A DNA stretch of 32,000 bases from contig NZ_CP042911.1 of assembly GCF_008065095.1 (NCBI RefSeq), forward strand, positions 5,820,001 through 5,852,000, given 5' to 3'. Origin of the DNA: Gemmata obscuriglobus. Lineage in GTDB: Bacteria > Planctomycetota > Planctomycetia > Gemmatales > Gemmataceae. Shown here piece after piece: positions 6,553 through 32,000 of this stretch (positions are counted from its first letter, which is position 1; every line of letters starts with the position of its first letter). A program made the position numbers and the translations under genes. The notes under the pieces are model-generated. The model was not told the origin of the DNA and searched no databases. It worked only from the letters and a program-made list of their open reading frames with translations.

Positions 6553-6583
6553 CTTATTGCTCATCTACCGGATGAGCAATAAG
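6553..6583 (-). terminator. Hairpin CTTATTGCTCATC-TACCG-GATGAGCAATAAG (13-bp perfect stem), possible terminator of the minus-strand zinc-ribbon ORF
   Basis: It starts 9 nt after the stop of ORF 6592..7071 on the minus strand. Only a weak T-run (GTTTG) follows the stem. Confidence 0.35.
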
Positions 6584-11649: not shown

Positions 11650-11722
11650 GGCGGGGTAGCTCAGAGGTTAGAGCACTCGCTTCATAAGCGAGGAGTCGTG
11701 GGTTCAATTCCCACCCCCGCTA
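11650..11722 (+). tRNA. tRNA with anticodon CAT: elongator tRNA-Met, or tRNA-Ile2 if lysidine-modified
   Basis: A 73-nt cloverleaf was folded by hand. Acceptor GGCGGGG/CCCCGCT (G1.T72 wobble), D-arm GCTC/GAGC, anticodon arm CTCGC-TTCATAA-GCGAG, T-arm GTGGG-TTCAATT-CCCAC, discriminator A, no encoded CCA. The anticodon stem lacks the three G-C pairs of initiator tRNAs. Confidence 0.9.
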
Positions 11723-11847
11723 CTGGCTCGAAGTGATCGCAAGCCCTTTCTGCCGAAGCAGTTTCTGCTTACCCCGGTGAGTTGCCGGGTGCGGCCCCAA
11801 ACGACGCGAAGTGTGAAATCGTTTCACGCTTCGGGGGGACGTGCCCG

Positions 11848-13152
11848 ATGCCCGCACAGCGCAAGTCTGTTCCGACCTACTGCCTCCACAAGCAATCTGG
11901 CCGCGGTCGTGCCGTTTGGACCGACGCGACCGGGACACGCCGGTTCAAGCTGCTTCCCGGCGCGTTCGAGTCGCGCGAGTCGCGCACCGCGTTCGCAACC
12001 CTCCTGCTCGAACTCGACGCCTCGCCTGCCGCGGTCACCGCTCCCACACAGGGAATGACGCTCGCCGAGGTGATGGTCGCGTACCTCCAACACGCCGAAC
12101 GACACTACCGCGGCGCGGACGGGAAGCTGACCAGCGAGTTCAACGAGATCAGGTTGGTAGTCAAGGCGCTTCGGGAGTTGTATGCCGAGACGCCCGCTGC
12201 CGAGTTTGGCCCACTGCGTCTCAAGGCCGTTCAGCGCAGGTGGGTGAACGCGAACCTCGCGCGTTCGGAATGCAACCGGCGCGTGAACCTCGTCCGGCGC
12301 ATGTTTAAATGGGCGTCGTCTGAAGAACTGGTTCCGGTGGCGACCTACCAAGCGCTCACCACTGTCAGCGGACTTACTCGCGGGCGATCCGCAGCGCGCG
12401 AGACCGAACCGGTCGGGCCGGTCGAAAATGTCGTGGTCGATGCAACGCTGCCATACCTGAACCGTTTCGTTCGCGGGTTGGTTCAGTTCCAGCGGTTCAC
12501 CGGGTGCCGACCCGGGGAGGCGTGCAACCTGCGCCGGTGCGACATCGACATGAGCGGTCCCGTCTGGCTGTACCGCCCGGAGACGCACAAGACCGCATGG
12601 AAGGGGAAAAGTCGCGTTATCGCGATCGGCCCGAAAGCTCAACTGGTACTCAACGAATTCTTCACCACCGAAGCGAGTGACTACCTGTTTAGCCCGGAGC
12701 GTGCGATGGAAGAGCACCAAGCCGAGCGCGCCGCGAACCGTAAGACGCCTCGATACCCCAGCCACATGAAACGGAACGTCGGCAAGCGGAAGGCACGGCC
12801 GAGGCGCGCACCGACAGACAAATACGACCACCGCTCGTATTCTCGCGCCGTCGCCCGCGCCTGTGACGAAGCGTTCCCGGCCGCGGCACCGCTCGCGCAG
12901 CAGTCCGGCGAAACGCGAGTCGCGTGGGCGAGTCGGTTAACGGTGGATGAGAAGGCGCGTCTTCTGGCGTGGCAGCAAGAGCACCGCTGGCACCCGAATC
13001 AACTCCGCCACAGTTACGCGACTCGGGTCCGAAAGGAACACGGCCTCGAAGCCGCCCAAGTGCTTCTCGGTCACTCGCGTGCCGATGTAACGCAGGTGTA
13101 CGCCGAACGCAACGAACAACTGGCCGTGGCCCTCGCTGCCAAGATCGGGTGA
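11848..13152 (+). CDS. int: Tyrosine-type site-specific recombinase / integrase
   Basis: The C-terminal catalytic region is WHPNQLRHSYATRVRKEHGLEAAQVLLGHSRADVTQVYAERN (HxxR ... H ... Y), with an upstream FTGCRPGEACNLR (Arg I box). ATG 11848 is the chosen start. The gene sits next to a tRNA gene. Confidence 0.9.
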   Translation: MPAQRKSVPTYCLHKQSGRGRAVWTDATGTRRFKLLPGAFESRESRTAFATLLLELDASPAAVTAPTQGMTLAEVMVAYLQHAERHYRGADGKLTSEFNEIRLVVKALRELYAETPAAEFGPLRLKAVQRRWVNANLARSECNRRVNLVRRMFKWASSEELVPVATYQALTTVSGLTRGRSAARETEPVGPVENVVVDATLPYLNRFVRGLVQFQRFTGCRPGEACNLRRCDIDMSGPVWLYRPETHKTAWKGKSRVIAIGPKAQLVLNEFFTTEASDYLFSPERAMEEHQAERAANRKTPRYPSHMKRNVGKRKARPRRAPTDKYDHRSYSRAVARACDEAFPAAAPLAQQSGETRVAWASRLTVDEKARLLAWQQEHRWHPNQLRHSYATRVRKEHGLEAAQVLLGHSRADVTQVYAERNEQLAVALAAKIG

Positions 13153-13312
13153 GGGCACAACGGAAGTTGATCTACGCGCCCCTCGCAATCTATTGGTATA
13201 CTTGTGAACACATGGTCGCCGCCCGGTTGCAAACGGGTGGTTCGTGGGTGTTCGGGCGGGCGCAAGAGCCGCCGTCTTCCCTGCCGCTCGGCCCGGTGTG
13301 CGGGTACTTTAC

Positions 13313-15478: not shown

Positions 15479-15539
15479 CCGGGGCGAAACCTTTTGCCCC
15501 GTTTCGGCCCAATTACAACTCCGCCGCGCATCGGCCATT

Positions 15540-15574
15540 GTGAACCTCAGCACAACCCGTGCGAGGAGGTTCAC
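15540..15574 (+). promoter_or_regulatory. Hairpin GTGAACCTC(15540-15548)/GAGGTTCAC(15566-15574) occluding the Shine-Dalgarno of the next gene
   Basis: It has a perfect 9-bp stem and a 17-nt loop. The 3' arm overlaps GAGGAGG, and ATG 15576 lies 2 nt after the stem. Confidence 0.35.
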
Positions 15575-15575
15575 G

Positions 15576-15953
15576 ATGGCCGAAACCGTTTCCGAAGCCG
15601 CATCCGCGCTGCCGGTGCTGGCCGAAATCCAGGTGGGCGCGGGGCTGTCACTGTCCGCCGCCGGGCGCCTGTTCCCGGGGCACCGCGGCGGCGCGTCCGT
15701 TGATCCGTCCACCGTGTTCCGCTGGGTGACCAAAGGCGCCCGGGCGGGCGAAGGGCGGGTCGTCAAGCTGGAGGCCGCCCGGGTCGGCGGGCGCTGGCTC
15801 ACGTCCCGCGAGGCCGTCGCCCGGTTCGTCGCCGCGCTCACCGAAGCCGCAACCCCCGCTGTTACTCCGGTCGCACCCACGACCCGCGCACCCGCAGCTC
15901 ACACGCGTGCGACCGAGAAGGCCGTCGCGGCGCTCAAGAAGATGGGCGCCTGA
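15576..15953 (+). CDS. DUF1580-like helix-turn-helix protein (excisionase/regulator-like)
   Basis: ATG 15576 has a GAGGAGG SD. The motifs LSLSAAGRLFPG...VDPSTVFRWVTKGAR...LEAARVGGRWLTSREAVARFVAAL match the pattern I recall for planctomycete DUF1580 / MerR-excisionase-type HTH proteins. Confidence 0.6.
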   Translation: MAETVSEAASALPVLAEIQVGAGLSLSAAGRLFPGHRGGASVDPSTVFRWVTKGARAGEGRVVKLEAARVGGRWLTSREAVARFVAALTEAATPAVTPVAPTTRAPAAHTRATEKAVAALKKMGA

Positions 15954-16040
15954 TCCCTACCCGGCCAACTTCACTCACCACTCAACGAAATCGGCCCGGG
16001 GAGCCGCGCAACTGACGCCCCGGACCGACTGGAGAAACCT

Positions 16041-18941
16041 ATGGACTTCACCGTATCAAATGGGTCCGGCGATCGCAATGAGAGCCCGAAAGAAATCACT
16101 GTCGATTTCGGCCCCGAGGCAGCCGACACCGAAACTGTGGGTCAGGGCGGTGCGGCGCGGGCAGAACAGCCCACCGATGGCACCAAAAAGCCCGAACTGC
16201 TGCCGAACCACCGGGCCGAACTCCGGGCGTCCGGGCTGACGGACGAAACGGGCACGGCGAATGGTGTGTACTCCGAGTCCGACCCGAAGGAGGTCGCCGC
16301 GCTCATCAATTGGAGTGTGACCCGCGCCAAGTTGCTCGGGCCGGTGTTGGTGTACCCGCATTTCGACCGCGACGGGCGACCGCTGCACCACGCCGCAGTG
16401 AAGCCGGACCGCCCACGTGACCGGGCGGACAAGCCCGGGAAGGTGAAGTACGAGAACCCGCGCCAGCGACCGAACCGCTTGTACGTTCCTGCGGGTGCCC
16501 GCGGCGCGCTGGGCGAGCCGACCGCGCCGCTGCTCGTTACTGAGGGGTGCAAGAAGGCGCTGGCCGCGACCCAGCACGGGTTCCCGTGCGTGTCGCTGCC
16601 CGGCGTCTGGTGCTGGGTGGCGCCGCGCGAGAAGAAGAACGGCAAGAAGGTCGGCAAGCTCGCGCTCAACCACGACCTGGCGGGCGTCGCATGGAAGGGG
16701 CGCCGCGTGTACATCTGCTTCGACAGCGACGCCGCGTCGAACTCCGATGTGGCCCGAGCCGAGAAGGCGCTCGCGGAGGTGTTGATCCGCCACGGGGCCG
16801 AGGTACGGGTCGTGCGGTTGCCCGCTGAACCGGACGGGGCCAAAAACGGGCTCGACGACTTCCTCGTCCGTCACGGCGCCGAACGACTCCGTCAGATCCT
16901 CAACGCCACCAACCCGGCCGCGAACCCAAAGCCGGAGGCGGTCCCCATTGATGCGACCGCATTCACCGAAAGCGGGTACACCGCGGTCCGCGGCAACACG
17001 TTCCACTGCGTGCTCGCGCGGGACGAGGACACGGACGAGTTGGTGGTCGCCAAGAAGACCAAGCTGGCCAACTTCATCGCTAAGATCGTGGGCGAGACGG
17101 TCACCGACGACGGGACCGAACAGGCCCGCGAGTTCGCGGTCCGGGTGGAACAGGGGCACAAGCCCGCGCGCGTCGCTGGGGTGCCGGTGGAGCGGTTCGG
17201 GGCGCTGGACTGGGTGGTCGAGAAGTTCGGGCCGACGTTGGTGATCCAGGCGGGCAGCGGGAAGCGCGATCACCTGCGGTGCGCGATTCAGGAGATGAGC
17301 GGGGACGACATCCCGTCGGCCACGGTCTACACACACACCGGGTGGCGCGAGATCGGCCGCCGGTGGTGCTACCTGCACGGCGCGGGTGCGATCGTCCCGA
17401 GTGTCCCAGGTGTCCCGGTTTCCCCATCGATAGATGTGCGACTCGACGGCGCGGCCTCTGGGTTCCAGTTCCCGGCGCCGCTCGCCGGCGATGCGCTCCG
17501 GGGCGCGGTTCGCGCCTCTCTGGGGTTGCTCGACGGGTTGGTTCCCGACGCGGTCGCGTTCCCGCTGGTCGCAACCGTGTACCGCGCGGGACTCGGTCCC
17601 GCCGACTTCGCGCTCTGGCTCTCGGGGCTGACCGGTGCGCAGAAGAGCGAACTCGCGGCGCTCGCCCAACAGCACTTCGGCGCCGGTATGACCCGGAGCC
17701 GGTTGCCGGGGAACTGGGCGTCCACCGACAACGCGCTCGAAGGATTGGCGTTCACCGTGAAGGACGCGGTGCTGGTGATCGACGACTTCGCCCCGCCGAC
17801 CTCCCGCGCCGACGCGGACCGGCAGCACCGCACCGCCGAGCGGCTGATCCGCGGCCAGGGCAACAGCGCCGGGCGCCAGCGGATGCGGGCCGACGGCACG
17901 CTGCGCCCGCCGAAGCCGCCGCGGGGTCTGATCCTGGCGACCGGCGAGGACGTTCCGCGTGGACACTCGATCACCGCTCGGTTGGGCGTGGTTGCAGTGC
18001 GGCGCGGGGACGTGAACCTTGCTCGCTTGTCGGCGTGCCAGAAGGACGCAGCGGACGGGTTACACGCCGCCGCAATGGCGGGGTTCATCGCGTGGCTGGC
18101 GCCGCGGTACGCAAATGTCCGCGGCGGCCTTGATGCCGAGCGGGTTCAACTGCGGGACCAGTTCGTGGGTCAGTTCTCGCACGCTCGCACCCCCGACATC
18201 ATCGCCAACCTGCTGCTCGGGTTGCGGTATCTGCTCGCGTTCGCGGGGGACATTCAGGCCATCGACCGACCACAGCGCGAGGAACTGTGGCGCCGTGGTG
18301 AGGTCGCGTTCCGGGCGCTGGCAGGCCAGCAAGGTGAGCACCAGCGAGCCGCCGACCCGGTGGCCCGGTTCCCGGAGATGCTCGGGGCGGTGCTGAGTAG
18401 CGGGCGCGGGCACCTCGCGGGGCCGGACGGCAAGGAACCTGGCGCCCCGCCATCGGTCGCGGCCTGGGGCTGGGATGCTCGCGAGAGCCGCACCGGGTTC
18501 GGCGAGGCGCGTGTGAGCTGTCAGCCGCGCGGGCGCAAGATCGGGTGGGTTGCGGGTGAAGAAGTGTATTTGGACCCGGACAGCGCGTTCGCGGCGCTGT
18601 CGGAACTGGCGCACGAACAGGGACAAGCGTATCCGGTCACGCAACAGACCTTGTACCGGCGGCTCAAAGAGAGCGGCGTGCTGGTGCGCACCGACGGCGA
18701 TCGGACCGCTTACCCGGTCACCCTAGAGGGCGTGCGCCGGCGCGTGTTGGTGCTGGCCGCCGACTTCCTGCTGGGGAAACCGGGACAACCGGGGCAACCG
18801 GGACTGGCCAAGGGAAATACCGGCTCGTTTGTCCCGGTTGTCCCGGTTTCGGGAACAGGAGGCGGTACCGAGAGCACGAACGGTCGACACGCACACGCGG
18901 ACGAGTTGTTTACGAACGACGTGGAGGTGTTCGCCCCATGA
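16041..18941 (+). CDS. Toprim-domain (DUF3854-like) primase / DUF927-like ATPase replication protein
   Basis: Toprim signature: LLVTEGCKKALA (Glu, ~16539), ICFDSDAASN (DxD, 16722-16730) and NGLDDFL. The central region contains YTHTGWREIG. A P-loop-like GLTGAQKS lies at 17625-17648 and a Walker B-like VLVIDDF at 17769-17789. Confidence 0.75.
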   Translation: MDFTVSNGSGDRNESPKEITVDFGPEAADTETVGQGGAARAEQPTDGTKKPELLPNHRAELRASGLTDETGTANGVYSESDPKEVAALINWSVTRAKLLGPVLVYPHFDRDGRPLHHAAVKPDRPRDRADKPGKVKYENPRQRPNRLYVPAGARGALGEPTAPLLVTEGCKKALAATQHGFPCVSLPGVWCWVAPREKKNGKKVGKLALNHDLAGVAWKGRRVYICFDSDAASNSDVARAEKALAEVLIRHGAEVRVVRLPAEPDGAKNGLDDFLVRHGAERLRQILNATNPAANPKPEAVPIDATAFTESGYTAVRGNTFHCVLARDEDTDELVVAKKTKLANFIAKIVGETVTDDGTEQAREFAVRVEQGHKPARVAGVPVERFGALDWVVEKFGPTLVIQAGSGKRDHLRCAIQEMSGDDIPSATVYTHTGWREIGRRWCYLHGAGAIVPSVPGVPVSPSIDVRLDGAASGFQFPAPLAGDALRGAVRASLGLLDGLVPDAVAFPLVATVYRAGLGPADFALWLSGLTGAQKSELAALAQQHFGAGMTRSRLPGNWASTDNALEGLAFTVKDAVLVIDDFAPPTSRADADRQHRTAERLIRGQGNSAGRQRMRADGTLRPPKPPRGLILATGEDVPRGHSITARLGVVAVRRGDVNLARLSACQKDAADGLHAAAMAGFIAWLAPRYANVRGGLDAERVQLRDQFVGQFSHARTPDIIANLLLGLRYLLAFAGDIQAIDRPQREELWRRGEVAFRALAGQQGEHQRAADPVARFPEMLGAVLSSGRGHLAGPDGKEPGAPPSVAAWGWDARESRTGFGEARVSCQPRGRKIGWVAGEEVYLDPDSAFAALSELAHEQGQAYPVTQQTLYRRLKESGVLVRTDGDRTAYPVTLEGVRRRVLVLAADFLLGKPGQPGQPGLAKGNTGSFVPVVPVSGTGGGTESTNGRHAHADELFTNDVEVFAP

Positions 18942-20980: not shown

Positions 20981-21910
20981 ATGCTCAGCTTCGCCCGCCC
21001 GGTCCTCGAACGCCTGCGTAGCTGTGGCGTCCGCCACTGGCTCCTGTTCGACGCCCTGTGGCTCGCCCACCGTGCGCCCGAGCCGGTACCTCGGGCGGAC
21101 CTCAACATCGACATCGGCGTGGACGCGAGCGATTTCTCCGCGTGTCGGGACATGCTCCTGGCGTGCCCGTCGTTACCCGATGAATTACCGAACGGGCGCC
21201 GCGCCGATCCGAATGTGGTCTCACTGGCGCGAGCCGACGGCCGGTGTGTGCGGTTGTGGCGCACCGAGCGCCGCGGGATCACGCGCGTGATTGCGTGCGC
21301 TCCTGAGCGGTTCGGATACGAGTTCCATTTCTGCGGGGCCGAGGAGCTATCGGTCGCCGGGCATCCGGTCGCGGTACCGCGATACGCACCCCAACTTCTC
21401 GATCACTGGTACGGTGCGGGCTGGCGCACGTCCCACGCCCCGCCCGCACTCGCCTCGCACCCGCCCGCGGCTCGCTCCGAACTGCGGGTCCTCATCGACG
21501 GGGTGTTCGACCTGTTCCACGTGGGCCACGTGCGCCTGTTCGCGCGGGCCAAGGCGTTGTACGGCCACGTTACCGCCGGGGTGATCGACGACGCCACCAC
21601 GGCCACCTACAAGCGCTGGCCGGTGGTCCCGCACGAGCACCGGGTGGAGGTGGTGCGGGCGTGCCGGTACGTCGATGCGGTGATCCCCCACTACCCGCTC
21701 CGGACGCCCGTGGCCGCACTCGACGCCCTCGGGATCGACTACCTGATCCACGGGGCCGGCGATCCGGCGTTCCTCCACACCTACTACAGCCATCTGATGG
21801 CGGCCGGCCGGTTCCACACGCTGCCCGAGTTCGACGGGTACCACACCACCGACCTCATCGCGCGGGCCGGAACCACCGTTCTACCTGCGGAATCGGCATT
21901 CGACGGTTGA
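20981..21910 (+). CDS. Fusion protein: degenerate LicD-like domain + cytidylyltransferase (CTP_transf_like; TagD/CCT/ECT-type)
   Basis: The C-terminal half is RVLIDGVFDLFHVGHVRLFARAK (HxGH at 21518-21529), VVRACRYVDAVIP and GYHTTDLIARA (RTxGISTT-like). The N-terminal half aligns by eye with the LicD domain of the next gene (LLFDALWLAHR....PRADLNIDIGV, ...LLDHWYGAGWRT), but the DDDID acidic cluster is replaced by ADLNID. Confidence 0.7.
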   Translation: MLSFARPVLERLRSCGVRHWLLFDALWLAHRAPEPVPRADLNIDIGVDASDFSACRDMLLACPSLPDELPNGRRADPNVVSLARADGRCVRLWRTERRGITRVIACAPERFGYEFHFCGAEELSVAGHPVAVPRYAPQLLDHWYGAGWRTSHAPPALASHPPAARSELRVLIDGVFDLFHVGHVRLFARAKALYGHVTAGVIDDATTATYKRWPVVPHEHRVEVVRACRYVDAVIPHYPLRTPVAALDALGIDYLIHGAGDPAFLHTYYSHLMAAGRFHTLPEFDGYHTTDLIARAGTTVLPAESAFDG

Positions 21911-21995
21911 GGAGTCGCGACGGGCCGCCCCCCGGTCGCCGGCCCTGACGCGCAACGGCTTCCCTGGTCTCCCTGAATCCACTCACGAGAACCGC

Positions 21996-23093
21996 ATGGC
22001 CCGTTTACCCGAGCAGCACGAGGCGCTCGACCTCCTGACCGAACTGGACCCGTTCCTGGCCCCGCGGGCGGCCCTGTTCTGGGGGAACCTGTTGGGGGCG
22101 GTGCGGCACGGCGGGTTCATCCCGTGGGACGACGACATCGATCTGCTGCTGCCGCGGTCGGACGTGCCCGCCCTGGAGGCGTTCTGTGCGGCCCGCGGGA
22201 TCGGAATCGTTCACCACAAGGCCCACTTCCTGAAGCTGTTCCGACGCGACGGGGCGGTGTGCCGGCCCGACCTGCCGTGGCGCTGGCCGTTCGTCGACGT
22301 GTTCCCGTACGACGTGTTCGGAGGCGAGGTGCTGACGCGGTTCGCCAACCGCGTGTACCGGTTCCCGGCGCCACAAGTGCTGCCGTTCCGCCCGGTCCTG
22401 TTCGAGGGGACTCCGCGACTCGCGCCGGCGTGCCCACTGGCCGTGCTGCGGAGCCTGTACGGCGACTACGGCACGTACCAGATCAAGACCTACGACCACC
22501 GGACCGAGCGGTCGGTGCCTCTGGACGAAATCGTCGAGCGGGTGAACGCCGCGCACTGGCGCCAGACGCCGCCGACGGGCGAGTCGCACTCCACGTTCGC
22601 GCCGGTCGCGGCAGCGGCGTTCGCCAGGGGCCAGGGGCGGGTGATCGATCTGGGCAGTGGGTCCGGCCGAGACGCCGCGTATCTGCGGGCGCAGGGGTTC
22701 GAGGTGGACGAGTGCGACCCGCATACCGGCCGCGGCGGGGACGCATTGATGGCGGACCTGTCCGGGTACGGGCGCATGTACTGTCGTTGGCTGCTGCACA
22801 CCCTCTCGTCCCGGCAGCAGTGGGCACTGCTGCGGCGACTGGCAGAAGTCCGGCCGGGAACCGTCGTGTGTCTGGAGTTCCGTGATCCGGCGGACGCATC
22901 TGCACTGACGCCCGTGTCCAACGACTCGCGCCTGTTTTTCGACGACGGGCACTTCCGCTGGCTGCTCGGAGCCAGTGAGGTAATGTCGGTGCTAGGTGCT
23001 GGGTTTAGGGTGCTCCACCACACGCTCGGCCGGTTTAGCTCGACGCCTGCTAGTGACCCGGTGCTCACCCGGCTCAACCTGCTCAAGCCATGA
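21996..23093 (+). CDS. Fusion protein: LicD-family phosphotransferase + class I SAM-dependent methyltransferase
   Basis: It carries the canonical LicD motif GNLLGAVRHGGFIPWDDDIDLLL (DDDID at 22128-22142) and LRSLYGDYGT. The C-terminal half has MTase motif I VIDLGSGSGRD (22641-) and an acidic post-I EVDECD. Confidence 0.75.
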   Translation: MARLPEQHEALDLLTELDPFLAPRAALFWGNLLGAVRHGGFIPWDDDIDLLLPRSDVPALEAFCAARGIGIVHHKAHFLKLFRRDGAVCRPDLPWRWPFVDVFPYDVFGGEVLTRFANRVYRFPAPQVLPFRPVLFEGTPRLAPACPLAVLRSLYGDYGTYQIKTYDHRTERSVPLDEIVERVNAAHWRQTPPTGESHSTFAPVAAAAFARGQGRVIDLGSGSGRDAAYLRAQGFEVDECDPHTGRGGDALMADLSGYGRMYCRWLLHTLSSRQQWALLRRLAEVRPGTVVCLEFRDPADASALTPVSNDSRLFFDDGHFRWLLGASEVMSVLGAGFRVLHHTLGRFSSTPASDPVLTRLNLLKP

Positions 23094-23487: not shown

Positions 23488-23868
23488 ATGAACGAGTTTG
23501 TTCTTCCGGTCGATGTGACGAGTACGCCCATTGGTCCGGGCCGCCCGTCTCGGCGCGATCCGGCGGCCACCCGGCAGAAGTGGGTCGAGCGGATCGACCG
23601 GTTCCGCACCGCCGGCGTTACTGTCGCACAGTTCTGTCTGGCCGAGGGCGTCTCCGTCCCGGCCTTCTACCAGTGGCGGCGGACGCTCGCGGCCGAGCGC
23701 GCTACCGAACCGGCCGACCGGCTCACCGTCGTCCCCGTGCGGGTCGCGCGTCCCACGTCCGGCGTCGAGGTCGTGCTCACCTCCGGCGCGATGCTCCGCT
23801 TCTCGGCCGACTGCGATCCGCAGCACGTCGCGGCGTTGCTCCGGGCGGTGGGAGCAATCCCGTGCTGA
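23488..23868 (+). CDS. tnpA: IS66-family accessory protein TnpA (Orf1)
   Basis: The motifs RQKWVERIDRFRTAGVTVAQFCLAEGVSVPAFYQWRRTL and the tail VVLTSGAMLRFSADCDPQHVAALLRAV fit the IS66 Orf1 pattern. The stop overlaps the tnpB start. Confidence 0.8.
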   Translation: MNEFVLPVDVTSTPIGPGRPSRRDPAATRQKWVERIDRFRTAGVTVAQFCLAEGVSVPAFYQWRRTLAAERATEPADRLTVVPVRVARPTSGVEVVLTSGAMLRFSADCDPQHVAALLRAVGAIPC

Positions 23869-24224
23869 CCATACCGCCATCGGTCAAGCTGTGGTACGCG
23901 CCGACGCCGGTGGACTTCCGGCTCGGGTTCGACGGGCTGTTCAACCTGGTCCAGTCCCGGCTCAAGGCCGATCCGCTGTCCGGCCACCTGTTCATTTTTC
24001 GGAACAAGACGGCCGGCCGGGTGAAGGTCTTGTACTGGGGCGGTCACGGTCTGTGCTTGTGGTGCCAGCGACTCGAAGCCGGGCGGTATCACTTTCCCGA
24101 CCCGGCCGAGGCGACCGACGCGGGCGTCGAGCTGTCGGCCGCCCAGTTCGCCATGATCCTCGACGGCATCGACCTGTCCCGCGTCCGACGGTTCAAGCGG
24201 TTCACGCCCGCGACACCCCGCTGA
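23862..24224 (+). CDS. tnpB: IS66-family accessory protein TnpB (Orf2)
   Basis: The GTG 23862 start overlaps the tnpA stop. The sequence VKLWYAPTPVDFRLGFDGLFNLVQSRLKADPLSGHLFIFRNKTAGRVKVLYWGGHGLCLWCQRLEAGRYHFP is the classic IS66 Orf2 sequence. Confidence 0.85.
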   Translation: MLTIPPSVKLWYAPTPVDFRLGFDGLFNLVQSRLKADPLSGHLFIFRNKTAGRVKVLYWGGHGLCLWCQRLEAGRYHFPDPAEATDAGVELSAAQFAMILDGIDLSRVRRFKRFTPATPR

Positions 24225-24270
24225 CACTTTTCGCTGGCCGACCCCTCACGCGGCGGTCATCATCGCGGGC

Positions 24271-25569
24271 ATGGACGCCCCGCTCCCCGACCCCGGCGCC
24301 CCACTCCCGACCGACGTGGCCGCGCTCCATGCGCTGGTCCGCGCGTTGCTGGCCGAGGGGACCCGACTGCGGGCCGAGAACGCCGAACTGAAGACCAAAC
24401 TCGACGCGGCGACGAAGCACCGGTTCGGACGTCGCAGCGAGCGCAAGAAACCCGCACCGGCTGATCCGAAGCCCGCACGCCGACGCGACGAGCACGGGCG
24501 CTCGGTATTGCCCGAACATCTCGAACGGCGGGACGTGGTCCACGACCCGACCGACGAGCAGAAGCGGTGCCCGGCGTGCGGGCGTGCGCGGGAATGCATC
24601 GGCGAGCAGACGGCCGAGCAGTTGGACCTGGACCCGCCCCGGTTCTTCGTCCTGCGGACCCGCAAGCGGAGCTGCGCGTGCCGCCAGTGCGACCCGACGG
24701 CGGTGAAGCTGCGCGTCGCTGGCAAGAACCGCACGGCCCGGGCGCACCGGTGGGTCGGGATCGGGGATGCGGACTTCCCGTACGTAGTGTTCGACTTCAC
24801 CACCGGCTACACGGCCGACGGGCCGAGAGCGTTCTTCGACGGCTATGCGGGCTACCTCCAGGCCGACGCGCTGGCCCAGTACGAGGGGCTGTAGCGCGAG
24901 GGGAAGGTGACGCACGTGTGCTGCTGGGCACACGCCCGGCGGAAGTTCGTGGCCGCTCACGACGCCGGCGAGGAGCGAGCCGGTCGAGCGCTCGAACTGA
25001 TCGGCCCGCTATACGCGATCGAGCGGACGTTGCCCCCGCTGTTGCCCCCTTCGGACGACCTGGTCGCGACCGAGCAACGACGCGCCCGAGAAGAGCAACG
25101 GCGCGCGATCCGCGTGCGGGCGTCGGAAGGGCTGCTGAGCGACTTGCGGACGTGGCTCGATACGACGCGGGCGAGTGCGTTGCCGAAGTCACCGTTGGGG
25201 AGTGCAGTCGGTTACGCGACGAACAACTGGGCGGCGCTGGTCCGCGACCGGGACGCGGGGTACTTGGCGATCGACAACAACCTGGCCGAGCGAACGCTTC
25301 GCGCGGTCGCCGTCGGACGGAACAACTGGGGCGTGGTGGGTAGCGAGGTGGGCGGGCGAACGGCCGCGACCCTGTACAGCGTCGTCGGGACGTGCAAGCA
25401 CCTGTCCATCGACCCGTGGACGTACCTGCGGGACACGCTGCCGGGGATCTTCGCGCTGGGCGACGAGCCGACCGCCGAGCAACTGCGCGACTGGCTACCC
25501 GATCGGTGGCTGCTCAATCGCACCCGCGACCGACCCGCCAACACCGCCGCGCCGCACAAATCCCAATAG
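24271..25569 (+). pseudogene. tnpC: IS66-family transposase TnpC, inactivated (in-frame TAG at 24892-24894 and apparent internal deletion)
   Basis: The leucine-zipper N-terminus and zinc finger (CPACG...CACRQC) are followed after only ~12 aa by GKNRTARAHRWVGIGDADFPYVVFDFTTGY...GYLQADALAQYEGL, then a stop, then in the same frame REGKVTHVCCWAHARRKF. Intact TnpC proteins carry, to my recollection, >100 aa of DDE domain between the zinc finger and the GK.RT..LW segment. Confidence 0.7.
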
Positions 25570-25658
25570 CGAACCGCGACACCCAAACCCGCTGATCACG
25601 TGAGATCAGCGGGCTACCCGCGTTCCATCCCGAGCAACGTGTTTCGCCGGGCGCTTAC

Positions 25659-25908
25659 GGCGCAGGTTGTGGTCCAGGGTGCGGCGTTGGAACGCGAGCA
25701 GGGACGGGTCCTTGAGGGCGAACAGGGCCAGGCTCGCCAGGAGCGTGTCGGGCAACGAGAACGTGGGCTCGTGACGCGCATCCGGGATCGTGTCGAACCG
25801 GTTCCGGGCGAGCGAGATCAGGGCATCGAAGTGGAGGTGCTCATAGCACCCGGGGAACCGACGGGTGGGCTCATGACCACGCCCCAACGGGATCGGAGGG
25901 CGATACAA
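25659..25908 (-). pseudogene. N-terminal fragment of a DDE transposase gene truncated by the IS66 right end
   Basis: The minus-strand ORF (TTG start) shows good codon bias. Its sequence FDTIPDARHEPTFSLPDTLLASLALFALKDPSLLAFQRRTLDHNLR resembles the N-terminal region of IS4/ISAs1-like transposases. The reading frame runs straight into the IS66 IR at 25658 and ends shortly after. Confidence 0.5.
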
Positions 25909-26102: not shown

Positions 26103-26585
26103 CTATTGTGCTGGCCGGGCATCAGCAACCAAGGCGACGGCTGAGCAAGTCGTTGAAAGGGCCCACCACGCAGAGAAAATGAAGGTGCTGTTTTGTGGAT
26201 CATTGGCTAGACCAAATCGCACAAGCCAACAGGCTTGAACAATGAGCGACGCAGACCAAATTAGCAGACGCACTTTTCGAGTGGGAATTGTGATTGCACG
26301 CACCCAGTAACCGATGGTAATAAGGTACCCAATACCGAATGGAAACGGAATAAGCGCCGACACGCCAAACGTACCGAATAGTAGAACGCCCCAAAGTGAA
26401 CCACCCAAAGCAAGCAAGATCGCGATCCGCTGCGGCCACAACGATTGACATGGCTGTTGCGCATCTTTGTGGACTGTTGATCGTAAAAAAAACATAATGT
26501 ATCCATTTAGAAAATTGTCTAGGCCGTGTGGACAGCCGCAATTGACTTTCGACGTAAACCCTGAATCAGTCTGATGTAGTGCCAC
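26103..26585 (-). CDS. Four-TM membrane protein, candidate Rhs immunity protein (GTG 26585; alternative ATG 26495)
   Basis: Four hydrophobic segments are present: IAILLALGGSLWGVLLFGTFGV, LIPFPFGIGYLITIGYWV, LLIWSASLIVQACWLV and FIFSAWWALSTTCSAVALV. It is the first sizeable ORF downstream of the Rhs gene on the same strand. It uses A/T-ending codons, unlike the host genes. Confidence 0.5.
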   Translation of the reverse strand: MALHQTDSGFTSKVNCGCPHGLDNFLNGYIMFFLRSTVHKDAQQPCQSLWPQRIAILLALGGSLWGVLLFGTFGVSALIPFPFGIGYLITIGYWVRAITIPTRKVRLLIWSASLIVQACWLVRFGLANDPQNSTFIFSAWWALSTTCSAVALVADARPAQ

Positions 26586-26660
26586 AATGGCGGCCAGGGG
26601 TTTGGCCGCCGCAACCGCTTGCTAGGCAGCAGCTCGTGAGTTGACTGTCTACATGATCTA

Positions 26661-26759
26661 CTAGCCATCGCAGAAAGAGTGCAACTCCTGTGACTGCAGC
26701 AGGGCACCTTTCCAAGGAGTTGGTTGCTAACTGAATCGCACTCTTTCTGCAACGGCTAG
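26661..26759. repeat. ~100-bp imperfect palindrome: CTAGCC..GCAGAAAGAGTGC-AACTCCT ... AGGAGTT ... GCACTCTTTCTGC..GGCTAG
   Basis: Read directly from the sequence. A 13-bp perfect arm lies at 26670-26682 / 26738-26750. An outer 6-bp arm lies at 26661-26666 / 26754-26759. An inner 7-bp arm lies at 26683-26689 / 26715-26721. Confidence 0.8.
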
Positions 26760-26761
26760 CA

Positions 26762-26864
26762 ATACGCTTCCCAGGAAACAACTGCCGGGCAGGCTTTCAG
26801 AAGCAGTCGAAAAACAACTGCCATTCCAGTGGTAGCTGTCGGCAGTTGTCTCCGGGAAGCGTAT
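26762..26864. repeat. ~100-bp imperfect palindrome ATACGCTTCCC-N-ACAACTGCCG ... CGGCAGTTGT-N-GGGAAGCGTAT with a third internal ACAACTGCC copy
   Basis: Read directly from the sequence. The arms are 26762-26787 / 26840-26864 (11 + 9 bp perfect, with a 5-6 nt mismatched middle). An extra AAAAACAACTGCC copy lies at 26810-26822. Confidence 0.8.
26810..26849 (-). terminator. Intrinsic-terminator-like hairpin for the rhs transcript
   Basis: On the minus strand it reads ACAACTGCC - 18-nt loop - GGCAGTTGT followed by TTTTCG. It lies about 120 nt after the rhs stop codon. Confidence 0.45.
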
Positions 26865-26965
26865 AAGATGCTGCAACCCAACGAGCTAGATTATTAGGCA
26901 AATCGAGCTATTCAACCCATATGGCCGTGGTCAATGGACAAAACACTATAATTTATATAAATACA

Positions 26966-29900
26966 TTAATCATCTAAATATGGCATTCTGCCTCCCGCCG
27001 CAGCGTCAGTCTTTTTGAATACCGAGATGGGTGGCCGAACGTCGACAACTCCATCACCCTTGTGAGCATTTGCCATATTAGTCAAGTATGTCTTCCAGAC
27101 TTTTTCAGTATCTTTTCTACCTTGATTGTTGAGCTGAAATCCAGCCTCTATCAACGCTCCGTTTCGCTTCTCTTCTGCGTTGGTTTCGAGTATCACAAGC
27201 TGCTTGCACTTCAAATCTACTGTTCTTACGGACCAAGTGCGCCAGCCAACGAGCAAGTGATTGCCGACGGTGACGGCTTCGATTTGCCGCCTAGGGCGAT
27301 TGAAAAACAATTCCACATAATTGATATTGCCGGGGCCATCACCCGCTATTAGGCCGCTCGACCAACCTTTTAGGCCAACAGCTTCAAATCCGGCAAACCA
27401 TCTACCATCTTTGATTCTAAAAGGAGGTATGACTCGAGAGTTATTATTTTCATTAAAATACTTAAACTGCTGCATGTCAAAATATATATTGCTGGCGATT
27501 GCATCCAACTGCTCTTGCGTTTTCCCTGTAAATTCAATCTTGACAATCTGTGTATGATGCAGCATCTCACCAGTTCCACCTTTGCTCCATTTCAGATCAC
27601 GCACAACATCGGCGTCGGGAATCTTATCTAAACCGTCATCAATTTTGCGTTTCTGCAATCCGCTTGCATCCGTGTCGTTTAGCGGACCGTTCGCAACGAA
27701 GCCGTAAAAATTCACATCTCCACCGGCAAGCCGGATCGGGTCGATGCTCACCCACCGCCCGAGTGTCGGGCTATACCACCGGTTACGTTGCGGGTTAAGA
27801 CCGGCCACCGCATCGGCCTCCATGCCCTGAAACCCGTGATAAAATGCGTATGCGCCTCCCAAGTCTATTTCATTATGGCTAGCGTTGTACGCGGTCTGCA
27901 CGCCGAACGGGTCATAGGCGTACCGCTCGACCAAGCTCCCGCTGCCGTTGACCAGCGCGGTGACGTTCCAGTTGGCGTCCTGCTGCACCCATAGCCGCTC
28001 ATCGAGCGTCCCGTTGGCGTCGGTATCGCGGTCACGCAGGATCAATGCGTCCAAGTACACAGGGCTCCACACGTACCGCGCGCTCGTGTTGCCGCCGACC
28101 TTCTCCTCGAGCACCTGCCACGAGGCCGAGTAGTACAGGTCCGTGGTTACGCTCGTCGCCGTCACGGTCTCGTTCACCCGCCGGTTGAGTCCATCGTACC
28201 CATAGGTCTTGAGCGTGGCGCCGCCGCTGCTCTTCACCGCCACGAGCCGGTTCCAGGCGTCGTACACGAACTGGCGCCCGGTCTCGTCACCGGTCATGTT
28301 CCCGTTCGCGTCGTACGTCGGGGTGGTGGCCCCGCTGATCCCGGTGATCTCGTTCTGCGCGTTCGCGGTGCGTGTCTGTGCGGCGCCGTTGGTGGTCACG
28401 CTGTCCCAGTTGCCCACCGCGTCGTAGTCCCAGTCTTGGCTCCGGGCTACCGTGCCACTGATCCCGGTCTTGGTGCCGTTGAGGGTGCCGCGATCGAAGC
28501 TCGCGAGCTGGTCCAGGGCGTCGTACCCGTACACCTCGCCGAACGTGGTATTGACAAGGTTGTCGCGGTACGTGCGGTTCCCGGCCGCGTCGTATCCGTA
28601 CTGGAACCGGTCCGTCGCGGTGCCGGTTGTTGGGTTCAGCCATCGCTGATCCACGACCCGCCCGAACCGGTCCAGGCCCGTGTACTGGTCGCCCGCGTCG
28701 CCGACGCTCTCGGCGGCCAGCTTCACGTAACTCAAGTCCACGTTCGGCTGCGGGTGCGAGCGAACCACGACGGTGCCCAGCCCCAGGTACGAGTACGCTT
28801 CCAGTGTGCCGGTCGAATCGCTCAGCGACGACCGCCGGCTGATGCTGTCATTTATCCCCGACGCGTAGTTGTACGTCAACACATATCCGGACGGGTACGT
28901 GATCGACGTGGGCCGCGATTGGTTGGTGCCGCTCGCCATTTCCGAGTACCCGTACTGCACCTTCGGGGTGGTCGAGGCGTTCACCGCGCCGCCGTGCGCC
29001 TGCCATTCGGTCACCATCTGCCCGAGCCCGTTGAACGCCCGCTGCACCTGGTTCACGATGCTCCCACCCGAGGCCGCGTCGTAGCTGGTGACGAGGTAGG
29101 CGTTCCCCTGGCCATCGTACGCGGTCTCGATGCGCCGTACGGCACCGCTGACGCCGCTGCCGAGGGTCGTCACCGCGTCACTCACCACCCGCCCGAGCAC
29201 ATCGTACGTCAGCGTGTGAACGCTCCCGTTGCGGTCCGTCGCCGTCAGCGTCTGCCCCAGCACGTTGACCGTCGTGACCTCCTGCTCGGACGCACTCGCG
29301 GCTCCGGTGCTCGGGTTCGGCCACCGGGTCGCGCCCGCCACATCGAACGAGTCCACCGCGCTGCCGGTACCCTGGCTCACCCCGTACAGGTACTGGGTGG
29401 TCTGCCCCCAGCCGCCCGTCACGTACGCCGTCAGGCTGGTCATCCCGGCCCCGTTGTACGTGTACCCCACGGCCTTGTCGTCTGCGTCGCTCACCACCCC
29501 GTTGACGAAGTTCTGGACCGTCCGCACGGTGCGCCCCAGCGCGTCCGCGTAGGTGCGACTCACCCGCCCCGCCGTGTCGGTCGCCTCGGCCGCCAAGCCG
29601 GCATCCCCGCCGGCGTTGACCACGGTCACGGACATGGTCGGGTTGCCGCCCGTCGCCACCACCGCCGGCTGGTACTTGCTGCCCAGCGCTCCGGTGAACC
29701 GCACCTCCCACCCGTACCCGCCCGGGGCCGCCGTCACCGCCACGTTCCCGCTACCGACTGAGGACAGCGCCTCCAGCGCCGCCTGCACCGCCGCCGCGGA
29801 CGCGTTCCACGCCAGCGACGAAGTGGTCTGGCCGCCAAACGTGAGGGTGAACGAGCCCCCCACGTTGGCCCCGGTGAGTTGTAACCACTGCACCGCGTCC

Positions 29901-32000
29901 GTCGCGTACCGGGTCTGCGTCACCAGCACGGTGGCGGTGCCCATCGGCACGGTGCCGGGCCGGGTCCACGCGGTCCCGCCGTTGGTCCCCACGTCCACGC
30001 TCGCCGTGGGCCGGTCGCCCAGGTCGTAGTAGTACCCGGCGTAGCTCACCCGCGCCCCGATCCCGCCCGACGGCGAGCCCAGCGCGCCGGTCCCGGTGGC
30101 GTCGTGGAACCGCTCCCGGCTCGTCACCGTCAGCACGTTCCCGCTCGCGTCGTACCCGTACTCCGCCTGCGTCAGAACCGTGTCCCCGGTCACGTCGTCG
30201 GCGTCGGAATACCCGATGTCCCCGCCCCCGTCCGTCGTGTAGTTGACGGTGAGCCGGCCCGCCCCGTCGTAGCTGGATTTCTGCACCAAGCCGCCCGGCG
30301 ACACGGTCTTGAGCACCTGCCCGCGGGCGTCGTACCACGTGAGCGAATACAGCGTGTTGGAGCCCACGTTCCCGGTACCCGGGTCGACCGCGTAGGTGTC
30401 GGTGCGGTACACCCGCCCCAACTCGTCGTAGCTGGTGGTGGACTGCGCCCGCAGCAGGCTGGAACTGAGCGGCTGTGGCACCCCGCCCGTCACGCTGGGG
30501 GTCGCCCCGTCGGCGTCGTACACCCGGGTCTTGGTCACCTGCCCCAGGTTGTCGTAGTCGGTGTACACGAGCGGCCGGTTCACACTCGTGGACTCGCTCG
30601 ACTCCACGCCCTGCTTCACCGCCACGGCCCGGCCCCGCCAGTCGAACCAGGTCTGCGTCACCCGCGCAGCGGCCCCGCCGCCCGGGTACTCGGTCACCGT
30701 GGTCAGGTTCCCGTCCCCGACGCCGCCCCCGTCGTACTCGTACGCCCGCACCTTCACCATGTTGGTGCCGGTCAGGTTGGTCGTGCTCCAGAACCCGGTG
30801 GTGGGCGTGTCGTCGGTGCCCACCCACACGCTCACCGCCCGCCCCAGCGCGTCGTACTCGGTGCGGGTGATGGTGCCCGCCGCGCTCACCGCCTTGTTCG
30901 ACTGCCCCGTCTTCCCGTACCCGGTCTGGGTGCGGTAAAAGTTCACCCCCTCGGTGCCCAGCGTCGCCGACGTCGAATACGTCAGCCCGCTCAGGGCGAA
31001 GTACGCGTCCGTGTGCGTCGCCTGTCCGACCGCGTTCACGTACGTGCGGGACAGCGACTGCACCTGGGAGATGGACTCGGCCCCGGTCGGCCGCCCGCCG
31101 CTCACCGCCGGAGCCGCGCTCATCGTCAGGGTTTCGGTGTACCCGTTCGCCGCGTCCGTGCGGGTCACCGTCGTCGGCCCGGTCGGGCGGTTCGTAGTAG
31201 CATCCCAGCCGGCATACGTGCGCACCTCGCGCGCGTCGTCGTCGTACACCGTGTAGTCCACCCGCCCGTTCGGGGCCGTCACCTTGGTCGCACGCCCGAG
31301 CGCATCCACCTCGTAGCTGGTCGTCAGGTGCAGCCCGCCGCCCGACGGGGTGGCCCACCCGCTGGGCAGGTTCGCGAACGTCCCGGTCTGGGCCGTGTCC
31401 ACGTCGGTGATGGTCTTCACCACCGCCCCGGTGGCCGCGTCGTACGCGGTGTACGTCAGGAACCCGGCCTGATCCTTCTGCCACACCGGGCGGCCGAACG
31501 CGTCGTTCACCGTCGTGACCGTGGTGGCGCTGTTGGACCCGTTCTGCGCCGTGGTGACGGTCGGCAACGTGACCGTGGTCGAAGCGATGTCGTTGGTGCC
31601 GGACCGGAACGTGTAACTGTAGCTCGTCGTCTGCCCGCCGGTCCCGTTGTCGTTCCGGTACACCGTCTCCGACGCCAGGTGGAAGAAGTCGAGCCCACCC
31701 ACCGTGTTCAGGATGTAGGTGAGCGTCTGCTGCGGCACCGCCGTCCCGGTCTCACCCTGCTGGATCGCCGACTGCTTCAGGTACCCGATCGCGTCGCCCG
31801 CGGCCGAGAGAGTCGCGGTGGTGATGCTCCCGTACGTGTACACCGTCACCAGGCCGGCCGTGTCGCTCAGGTACGTCGCGTTCCCGCCGCTGTACCCGAC
31901 CAGGTCCGCGTACCCCTCGCTGTACCCGGTCACCGCGCTGGGGGCTGCCGTCAGCGCCACCTGCCCGTCGGCCGTGTACCGGGTGTAGCTCACCCACGTG
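26966..32000 (-). CDS. Rhs/YD-repeat polymorphic toxin (N-terminus outside the window); core 27656-32000, variable C-terminal domain 26969-27655
   Basis: It has dozens of YD repeats (YTYDVLGRV, YGYDAAGNRT, YDANGNMT, YGYDGLNRRV). The Rhs-associated core end is RNRWYSPTLGRWVSIDPIRLAGGDVNFYGFVANGPLNDTDASGL. A 229-aa tail follows with no YD periodicity. The frame is open to the window edge. Confidence 0.9.
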   Translation of the reverse strand, partial: TWVSYTRYTADGQVALTAAPSAVTGYSEGYADLVGYSGGNATYLSDTAGLVTVYTYGSITTATLSAAGDAIGYLKQSAIQQGETGTAVPQQTLTYILNTVGGLDFFHLASETVYRNDNGTGGQTTSYSYTFRSGTNDIASTTVTLPTVTTAQNGSNSATTVTTVNDAFGRPVWQKDQAGFLTYTAYDAATGAVVKTITDVDTAQTGTFANLPSGWATPSGGGLHLTTSYEVDALGRATKVTAPNGRVDYTVYDDDAREVRTYAGWDATTNRPTGPTTVTRTDAANGYTETLTMSAAPAVSGGRPTGAESISQVQSLSRTYVNAVGQATHTDAYFALSGLTYSTSATLGTEGVNFYRTQTGYGKTGQSNKAVSAAGTITRTEYDALGRAVSVWVGTDDTPTTGFWSTTNLTGTNMVKVRAYEYDGGGVGDGNLTTVTEYPGGGAAARVTQTWFDWRGRAVAVKQGVESSESTSVNRPLVYTDYDNLGQVTKTRVYDADGATPSVTGGVPQPLSSSLLRAQSTTSYDELGRVYRTDTYAVDPGTGNVGSNTLYSLTWYDARGQVLKTVSPGGLVQKSSYDGAGRLTVNYTTDGGGDIGYSDADDVTGDTVLTQAEYGYDASGNVLTVTSRERFHDATGTGALGSPSGGIGARVSYAGYYYDLGDRPTASVDVGTNGGTAWTRPGTVPMGTATVLVTQTRYATDAVQWLQLTGANVGGSFTLTFGGQTTSSLAWNASAAAVQAALEALSSVGSGNVAVTAAPGGYGWEVRFTGALGSKYQPAVVATGGNPTMSVTVVNAGGDAGLAAEATDTAGRVSRTYADALGRTVRTVQNFVNGVVSDADDKAVGYTYNGAGMTSLTAYVTGGWGQTTQYLYGVSQGTGSAVDSFDVAGATRWPNPSTGAASASEQEVTTVNVLGQTLTATDRNGSVHTLTYDVLGRVVSDAVTTLGSGVSGAVRRIETAYDGQGNAYLVTSYDAASGGSIVNQVQRAFNGLGQMVTEWQAHGGAVNASTTPKVQYGYSEMASGTNQSRPTSITYPSGYVLTYNYASGINDSISRRSSLSDSTGTLEAYSYLGLGTVVVRSHPQPNVDLSYVKLAAESVGDAGDQYTGLDRFGRVVDQRWLNPTTGTATDRFQYGYDAAGNRTYRDNLVNTTFGEVYGYDALDQLASFDRGTLNGTKTGISGTVARSQDWDYDAVGNWDSVTTNGAAQTRTANAQNEITGISGATTPTYDANGNMTGDETGRQFVYDAWNRLVAVKSSGGATLKTYGYDGLNRRVNETVTATSVTTDLYYSASWQVLEEKVGGNTSARYVWSPVYLDALILRDRDTDANGTLDERLWVQQDANWNVTALVNGSGSLVERYAYDPFGVQTAYNASHNEIDLGGAYAFYHGFQGMEADAVAGLNPQRNRWYSPTLGRWVSIDPIRLAGGDVNFYGFVANGPLNDTDASGLQKRKIDDGLDKIPDADVVRDLKWSKGGTGEMLHHTQIVKIEFTGKTQEQLDAIASNIYFDMQQFKYFNENNNSRVIPPFRIKDGRWFAGFEAVGLKGWSSGLIAGDGPGNINYVELFFNRPRRQIEAVTVGNHLLVGWRTWSVRTVDLKCKQLVILETNAEEKRNGALIEAGFQLNNQGRKDTEKVWKTYLTNMANAHKGDGVVDVRPPISVFKKTDAAAGGRMPYLDD

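Follow-up and report, generated by a model that had tools for sequence, protein, structure and literature searches.

Among the main sources of new antibacterial activities are the Rhs toxins, whose characterized tips are mostly nucleases, NADases and ADP-ribosyltransferases that act in the cytoplasm. CdiI-EC93 and the immunity proteins of pore-forming colicins reside in the cytoplasmic membrane. Here we analyze an Rhs locus of Gemmata obscuriglobus (Planctomycetota) that lies in a stretch of 32,000 nucleotides (nt), referred to below as the window (assembly GCF_008065095.1, contig NZ_CP042911.1, positions 5,820,001 to 5,852,000; coordinates are counted from the first nucleotide of this stretch). 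The Rhs protein ends in a tail of 229 amino acids (aa), and the gene that follows encodes a small protein with four predicted transmembrane (TM) segments, the 4-TM protein. The reading that we consider probable is that the two make up a swappable Rhs toxin/immunity cassette, with a helix-grip toxin that acts at the membrane; two parts of it, the toxin/immunity cassette and the membrane as the site, we regard as very likely.

A helix-grip, START-like toxin tip has been predicted on lipoprotein toxins with a Cystatin-like domain (Burroughs, Nicastro & Aravind 2025, PMC12419801), a prediction echoed in a 2026 review of bacterial START proteins (PMC13525633). This computational study is the sole precedent that we found for such a tip; in the portion of the 2012 census of polymorphic toxins by Zhang et al. 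(PMC3482391) that was available, the terms 'START', 'SRPBCC' and 'helix-grip' do not occur. The 2026 review also describes lipid transport or catalysis as the role of most characterized bacterial START proteins, and it notes that doubt has been cast on the toxin labels of PasT and Rv0910, the older 'START toxins', which have been reinterpreted (PMC13525633). TelC and TipC, a lipid II phosphatase toxin and its immunity protein, are cited in PMC12419801 and offer a further point of comparison.

The window contains each feature of an Rhs polymorphic toxin that can be read within it: repeats, a core end motif followed by a tip, and a candidate immunity gene downstream (Table 1).

Table 1 Features of the Rhs locus and its flank, in window coordinates
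Feature	Position	Strand	Evidence or remark
Rhs/YD-repeat core (shell)	27656..32000	-	PF05593, TIGR01643; N-terminus past the window edge
Rhs-associated core domain (plug/autoproteolysis region)	27656..27916	-	TIGR03696; intermediate GC3; core identity drops here
C-terminal tail, putative toxin tip, 229 aa	26969..27655	-	Translation, GC and GC3, 83 relatives
Predicted helix-grip (START/Bet v 1-like) domain, tail residues ~25-200	27056..27583	-	AlphaFold2 and Foldseek
Signature motif T-V-G-N-H-L-L-V-G-W-R-T-W, tail residues 129-141	27233..27271	-	Invariant H133, G137, R139, W141
Strand T-N-A-E-E-K-R, tail residues 158-164	27164..27184	-	Invariant T158, acidic 162
W-K-T-Y-L-T-N on the long C-terminal helix	27077..27097	-	W187, Y190, N193
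Structured spacer, 470 nt (toxin stop to immunity ATG)	26496..26965	-	RNA fold, two ~100-nt hairpins
Candidate immunity gene, 130-aa 4-TM protein	26103..26495	-	Open reading frame, hydropathy, homologs in L015 and L001
TM segments of the 4-TM protein	~26364-26426, 26301-26360, 26211-26267, 26124-26183	-	Four hydrophobic segments
IS66-family element (tnpA-like, tnpB, split tnpC)	23488..25569	+	PF05717 TnpB_IS66 2.7e-31; flanks the cassette, not part of the module

The Rhs core and the family of its tail

The Rhs open reading frame (ORF; 26966..31993, minus strand) is open up to the edge of the window, comprises 1675 codons within it and terminates at a stop codon at 26966-26968. Its RHS/YD repeats match PF05593 RHS_repeat in Pfam (2.5e-9) and TIGR01643 in NCBIfam (3.6e-5). 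The Rhs-associated core model TIGR03696 covers residues 1360-1446 (E 1.7e-15), and its last residue is the L of DASGL (27656-27670). The core thus ends where the original prediction, made on the sequence of this window, had placed it: at a variant of the PxxxxDPxGL-type motif with Ala in place of Pro. The motif is also where it had been located (27656-27676), although that range spans DTDASGL only and the full NGPLNDTDASGL extends from 27656 to 27691. Variants of the form D-A-x-G-L are found in two relatives as well (P0036 and P0083). The three residues that we take to be catalytic are all present in the Rhs sequence: Asp in DPIRLAGG, Asp in DASGL and an Arg upstream.

The tail itself has no match in Pfam, in NCBIfam or among PDB sequences (a PDB profile search with the family gave chance-level matches only), and Pfam returns zero families at E <= 1 for either the tail or the 4-TM protein. 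In NCBIfam, the tail matches the BrnA antitoxin at 12.6 bits (E 0.12), with the cut-off at 60, and we discarded this match as chance. The earlier statement that the tail belongs to no known toxin family is borne out, yet it does belong to a family: an exhaustive HMMER search retrieved 83 representatives at E <= 1e-3 and 19 at E <= 1e-10, each standing for a cluster at 50% identity, which sets the family size at 83 clusters at least. The best relative is 40% identical (E 6.5e-34). A word-indexed homology search gave no match for the tail, the 4-TM ORF or the 40-sequence family alignment; relatives were found only by exhaustive search and by retrieval of loci at the DNA level, so that the word-indexed negatives do not mean absence. 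The relatives are annotated only as 'RHS repeat-associated protein' or 'hypothetical protein', and the sole named genome among the matches is a metagenome-assembled genome of Planctomycetota (locus L001). Judged by these sequence relationships, the tail is a member of an unnamed, putative toxin-domain family centered on Planctomycetota.

The tail domain occurs on other scaffolds too. Among the 46 relatives for which N-terminal sequence is available, 32 carry the Rhs core (TIGR03696) directly upstream of the domain, and at least three to five are short non-Rhs proteins with an N-terminal L-E-x-L-E-x-R leader (P0021, P0031 and P0062; also P0053 and P0071). The domain is therefore a mobile tip on at least two scaffolds. 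In four to seven relatives (P0015, P0022, P0041 and P0048; also P0025, P0043 and P0047), a Gly-rich hydrophobic segment lies between DPxG and the domain.

Two further observations concern individual relatives. In the GC-rich loci L013 (4001-5356) and L014 (2346-3651), the helix-grip domain is followed by an extra conserved C-terminal extension of ~150-270 aa with the motifs …RAPWYRxPD…EFIxSDLNxRVALPLRxAAE…TPLNQNYLLP…; L014 is also frameshifted. In L001, the same N-terminal segment of ~50 aa, MAGCMNTQNLRPLRVELGGELLVVRAAPIRRSDLFPTCVPTERWMSCFAY, opens two different ORFs that flank the toxin module (2363-2510 and 6419-6570), one of which runs on into Rhs repeats. The pair has the appearance of a repeated element or of a scar left by recombination.

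Evidence for a horizontally acquired cassette on a resident core

The GC (guanine plus cytosine) content is 45% in the tail (0.451), 50% in the spacer and 49.5% in the 4-TM ORF, against 69% in the Rhs core (0.686) and 67% in the rest of the window. GC at third codon positions (GC3) follows the same division, with 0.45 in the tail and 0.47 in the 4-TM ORF as against 0.92 in the core. The GC values counted by hand for the original prediction are reproduced at all four places (0.733, 0.683, 0.317 and 0.317), and the AT-rich block is there, though it ends at ~26,100, where the 4-TM ORF has its stop codon, rather than at about 26,150.

The upstream border of the block proved to differ from what had been proposed, namely a collapse of GC directly after the motif and a breakpoint at DASGL. 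Counted in bins of 20 codons, GC3 is 0.85-1.0 up to codon 1360, 0.55-0.8 over codons 1361-1440 and 0.25-0.65 in the tail; the fall from 0.95 to 0.55-0.8 hence sets in at codon ~1361 (nt ~27,913), with lower values still in the tail. Four relatives (P0010, P0013, P0018 and P0061) have cores that are 45-75% identical to this one up to residue ~1360; at residue 1361, identity drops from 48-75% to 26-38%, the range seen over residues 1361-1400. Because the GC3 break and the identity break coincide just past ERYAYDPFG, ~85 codons upstream of DASGL, we place the junction at ~nt 27,913 (codon ~1361); the plug/protease part of the core therefore seems to belong to what is swapped.

Low GC is not peculiar to this locus, an idea that we rejected on the evidence of three related loci that are likewise low-GC grafts in GC-rich contigs. 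L015 (2941-4185), which holds the closest relative of the tail (P0001), is an orphan module made up of the last ~41 core residues, the toxin and a 4-TM immunity gene; it has 41-48% GC inside a contig of 63-70% GC, and the genes upstream are unrelated. In L021, the GC content is 62% in the core, 38% in the toxin and 31% in the immunity gene, and L018 is also a low-GC graft in a GC-rich contig. In L013, L014 and L004, the GC content of the module matches that of its own contig. The composition and core-identity breaks at the 3' end of the core, together with the orphan module of L015 and the graft of L021, bear out the idea of a swapped foreign cassette: the block from ~27,910 to 26,100, which contains the core end, the toxin, the spacer and the immunity gene, is a horizontally acquired cassette on a resident GC-rich Rhs core.

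A membrane protein is encoded next to the tip

The ORF downstream of the tail has the four hydrophobic segments and the A/T-ending codons that had been ascribed to it, and its product is strongly hydrophobic (grand average of hydropathy, GRAVY, +0.71). The maximal ORF begins at a GTG at 26585 and has 160 aa; comparison with the homologs favors a start at the ATG at 26495 (130 aa), or possibly at a TTG 19 codons into that ORF. Loops are very short, and the N-terminus and the loop between TM2 and TM3 are rich in positive charges, which makes an N-in/C-in topology likely, with almost nothing exposed.

Homologs of the 4-TM gene follow the toxin gene directly in both relatives in which its co-conservation was checked. 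That of L015 is a 116-aa ORF that begins 18 nt past the toxin stop and was missed by the source annotation (39% identity, E 7e-25); that of L001 encodes 133 aa and begins 35 nt past the toxin stop (36% identity, E 7e-15). The three proteins have 28 invariant positions in common, including FG-GY--T-GY--R, IW--S and WW, and the window protein retains every position common to both homologs. The 4-TM protein has no Pfam or NCBIfam match, and its L015 homolog has no Pfam match. Co-conservation of the gene with the tail, as well as the suspicion that both proteins are new families, is thereby upheld, as neither protein falls into a curated family.

To see which genes accompany the tip elsewhere, we surveyed the next downstream gene in 20 related loci with readable sequence (L014 ends too early, and P0004 lies outside the 20). 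In all 20, it encodes a membrane-associated protein. The window-type 4-TM protein is found in L001 and L015. A second polytopic family, the commonest marine one, has proteins of 136-149 aa (L004, L005, L006, L008/9, L010, L012 and, frameshifted, L011) and shows no detectable homology to the window-type family (hhalign probability 0.2). Other small polytopic or bitopic proteins are encoded in L003/L022, L007, L013, L017, L018 and L021. HEAT/solenoid proteins with an N-terminal hydrophobic anchor occur in L002, L019 and L020, and in L016 the neighbor is a solenoid protein related to these, whose lipoprotein lipobox, LLTGC, speaks for the periplasmic side. The neighbor of P0004, known from a gene call only, is a HEAT_2 protein. 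There are thus at least five unrelated immunity solutions, all tied to the membrane and one of them predicted to be periplasmic; the toxin therefore appears to meet its target, or to be intercepted, at the membrane. The proposal that a membrane immunity protein points to an envelope- or membrane-acting toxin gains strength from this survey.

The spacer between the two genes sets the window locus apart from most of its relatives, in which the distance is 7-62 nt or the genes overlap; the exception is a gap of ~550 nt ahead of the HEAT gene in L002. Its predicted RNA fold has z = -7.86, and none of 100 shuffled sequences folds equally well. Two near-perfect hairpins have arms at 26661-26687/26733-26759 and 26771-26787/26840-26856. 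The strong structure that had been noted is therefore real; the length of 380 nt given with it holds up to the maximal GTG ORF, and the distance to the ATG at 26495 is that given in Table 1. No Rfam family covers the spacer, and no second copy is present in the window or in the fetched loci. A match to miR-284 (E 0.6) scores 22 bits, with the gathering score at 60, and was dismissed as chance. The spacer may be an inserted palindromic element, or it may be a regulatory or stabilizing RNA structure.

The tail is predicted to adopt a helix-grip fold

The AlphaFold2 model computed on the 40-sequence alignment A1 has a predicted local distance difference test (pLDDT) score of 85 and a predicted template-modeling (pTM) score of 0.83, against a pLDDT of 33 for the single-sequence model. 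Its elements follow in the order beta (28-42), alpha (47-62), beta (73-80), beta (86-92), alpha (95-103), four strands (112-164) and a final helix of 32 residues (167-198). A Foldseek search of the PDB with this model gave 139 matches at E <= 1e-3. The best 50 of these 139 are PYR/PYL abscisic-acid receptors and a hydroxynitrile lyase of the Bet v 1 fold (E 4e-6 to 5e-5, probability 1.0, TM-scores 0.40-0.59), and weak matches in BFVD include START-domain proteins. At the level of predicted structure, the tail domain is a START/Bet v 1 helix-grip fold.

Conservation, counted in alignment A1, is concentrated in a small set of residues. H133, G137, R139, W141, T158 and W187 are each present in 40 of 40 sequences, and position 162 is always acidic (Glu in 27, Asp in 13). 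F64, F90, V114 and T129 are kept in 39 of 40, F67 in 38, Y190 in 37 and N193 in 36. The window tail has all of the invariant residues. In the model, strands 135-148 and 151-164 form a hairpin in which G137, R139 and W141 alternate and pair with E162, A160 and T158, respectively. H133 lies in the loop ahead of this hairpin, and W187, Y190 and N193 share one face of the long helix. From the alternating strand register and the common helix face, rather than from model coordinates, we propose that the conserved residues line the cavity: a polar cluster of H133, R139, T158 and E/D162, together with W141, W187, Y190 and N193, would face the ligand.

Proposed mechanism and alternatives

Toxicity, autoproteolytic release, the site of action and the mode of neutralization are what we infer from these observations. 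By analogy with established Rhs/Tc biology, the Rhs shell would enclose the tip until its release at the DASGL-type site. Once delivered, the tip would most likely act at the periplasmic side of, or within, the cytoplasmic membrane of the target cell, where the helix-grip domain would bind a hydrophobic, lipid-like membrane component, and the His/Arg/Thr/acid cluster would probably modify the bound component chemically. That the substrate is a lipid is a tentative suggestion. The co-inherited 4-TM inner-membrane protein would shield the producer, intercepting the toxin laterally in the plane of the membrane. A more far-reaching version would see here the first START-fold antibacterial effector class, one that attacks from the periplasmic side and kills because an essential lipid of the membrane is extracted or cleaved (for instance an undecaprenyl-linked cell-wall precursor, a quinone, a hopanoid or a sterol), and against which intramembrane or membrane-anchored immunity arose independently at least five times; taken together, these propositions are speculative, and we think it somewhat unlikely that all of them hold.

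Several points weigh against a helix-grip toxin acting at the membrane. Toxicity, cleavage and protection are deduced from sequence and models, and, as the Rhs N-terminus lies beyond the window, the delivery route is not read from the sequence. The fold match is moderate (TM-scores in the range given above, root-mean-square deviation 6-13 Å) and comes from a predicted model, with the cavity placement of the conserved residues derived from strand register. A sequence link to START/SRPBCC families in Pfam is missing: the tail, 40 of its relatives and the family consensus give zero matches to START, Polyketide_cyc, Bet_v_1 or related Pfam models. By hydropathy, the linker of the tail is hydrophilic and has no membrane segment. 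The structured spacer, specific to the window locus, could uncouple or silence the immunity gene, and the membrane immunity protein could block the import of a toxin that acts in the cytoplasm.

This last point leads to an alternative in which the tip has a cytoplasmic target, on which it might act as an RNase or through some other enzymatic use of the H/R/E cluster, and the membrane proteins prevent its entry through the inner membrane by masking or occupying the translocation route. The invariant His, Arg and acidic residues do resemble the acid-base sets of small nucleases, the Gly-rich hydrophobic segment ahead of the domain in some relatives could serve translocation, and the tail is soluble and basic (GRAVY -0.54, isoelectric point 9.1). 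We nevertheless consider a cytoplasmic enzyme improbable. Neither sequence nor fold yields a match to a nuclease, an ADP-ribosyltransferase or a deaminase; the fold that is matched is a box for hydrophobic ligands; and immunity families that are unrelated yet all membrane-bound, a predicted periplasmic lipoprotein among them, form the pattern of an envelope toxin.

Similarly low odds attach to a channel or pore former related to DUF1990 and OEP23, which would be neutralized in the membrane in the way that immunity proteins neutralize pore-forming colicins. Small polytopic immunity proteins are typical of such toxins (those of colicins A, E1 and Ia, and CdiI-EC93). Three members of the tail family give weak matches to PF09348 DUF1990 (E 0.015-0.08), a family that includes chloroplast OEP23, reported to be a cation channel in bilayers (PMC4331141). 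Yet P0056 reaches 13.5 bits in its DUF1990 match, where the Pfam cut-off is 23, neither the tail nor the consensus matches the family, and we rejected DUF1990 membership as falling below the gathering threshold (best E 0.015, in 2 of 40 members). The OEP23 channel data were obtained with protein refolded from inclusion bodies, a caveat raised by its authors (PMC4331141). We also rejected a colicin-like pore former, because the tail lacks a hydrophobic helical hairpin (maximal 19-residue Kyte-Doolittle score 0.81); the predicted fold is alpha/beta, and a site for binding or catalysis is what the invariant His/Arg/Thr/acid cluster resembles.

We give little credence to the view that the module is a decaying remnant, uncoupled by the 470-nt insertion and no longer a working pair. 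The spacer is indeed far longer than in relatives and made of long hairpins, and directly downstream is debris of insertion sequences (IS), namely an IS66 element whose tnpC is split and a transposase-like fragment. Both ORFs are intact, however, with no invariant residue of the tail lost, the Rhs ORF runs unbroken over more than 1675 codons, and the immunity protein keeps all of the positions common to its two homologs. Finally, a lipid-binding cargo for signaling, adhesion or nutrient capture, with the membrane proteins as its partners, would suit the carrier and enzyme roles and the disputed toxin labels of bacterial START proteins described in PMC13525633, but is very improbable for a domain that occupies the toxin position behind an Rhs cleavage motif, travels in orphan tip-plus-partner cassettes and is accompanied by hypervariable, non-homologous partner families, as polymorphic toxins are.

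Other features of the window

The IS66 element beside the cassette has its DDE_Tnp_IS66 domain split over two ORFs, 24271-24894 and 24907-25569, by a frameshift or a stop, and shows no clear terminal inverted repeats. Next to it, a 100-aa ORF (25606-25908, minus strand) resembles, by eye, a truncated transposase N-terminus and has no Pfam match.

Further away, a tRNA-Met gene (11650-11723, plus strand) is followed directly by a tyrosine integrase gene (11782-13152) and then by a DUF3854/DUF927/Toprim primase-like gene (16041-18941). This arrangement suggests that the region 11650-18941 (plus strand) is an integrated mobile element; within the window, the 3' end of the tRNA-Met gene is not repeated as an attR. 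Between the primase region and IS66, a cytidylyltransferase-like gene and a LicD-family gene with a methyltransferase-like C-terminus (20981-23093, plus strand) may serve a phosphocholine-type surface modification. An RNase E/G gene (2-514), of which the window holds the 3' end, is followed directly by a stand-alone SUKH-1/SMI1-KNR4 gene (524-1165, plus strand; 7.5e-22), which represents a classic family of polymorphic-toxin immunity proteins; with no toxin gene nearby, this gene may be an orphan immunity gene. The window also encodes a DUF7133/HEAT/cytochrome c protein, in keeping with a planctomycete lineage.

Comparison with known systems

To our knowledge, interbacterial conflict in Planctomycetota is largely uncharted in both its delivery systems and its targets. 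If a helix-grip toxin acting at the membrane is the correct reading, the cassette would provide a first functional handle on this conflict, and a lipid-binding helix-grip tip with membrane-bound immunity would add a mechanistically different, envelope-acting class to the Rhs tips. The residues H133, R139, T158, E162, W141 and W187, the candidate cognate immunity gene and natural toxin/immunity pairs are now defined.

With the Rhs/YD-repeat polymorphic toxins (type VI secretion system Rhs effectors, PMC8636562; Zhang et al. 2012, PMC3482391), the window system shares the shell, the DPxGL-type core end and the variable tip, as well as the adjacent immunity gene, the low-GC graft of the tip and the occurrence of orphan tip/immunity modules. 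It differs from them in a tip that lies outside the Ntox/Tox families of Pfam and NCBIfam, in its DASGL motif, in a junction ~85 codons further upstream and in its planctomycete lineage. With the START/Bet v 1 (SRPBCC) superfamily, represented by PYR/PYL receptors, hydroxynitrile lyase, polyketide cyclases and PasT/Coq10, the tail has in common a long C-terminal helix over a curved sheet. It departs from these proteins by an additional helix/loop at residues 95-110, which bears an SGDGP motif in a subgroup, and by a hairpin at the C-terminus, and it sits in a toxin context without sequence-profile membership.

The Cystatin-type toxins (PMC12419801) likewise combine a helix-grip tip with a predicted action on lipids at the membrane and a membrane-anchored immunity protein. 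Their scaffold is a Cystatin-like domain with a lipobox, whereas that of the window toxin is Rhs; both are predictions, here compared by description only. The immunity of the Cystatin-type toxins is probably provided by a membrane-anchored BamE-like family, called the most widespread (PMC12419801), and that of the window family by 4-TM or HEAT proteins. Envelope-acting toxins such as the colicins, the toxin countered by CdiI-EC93 and TelC/TipC also have membrane-embedded or membrane-anchored immunity, which implies neutralization at the membrane; in contrast to colicins and TelC, the window toxin has neither a hydrophobic hairpin nor a Lipocone/TelC fold, and the immunity families are unrelated. 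The locus thus unites a known logic of delivery and immunity with an unusual, uncharacterized tip fold and new immunity families.

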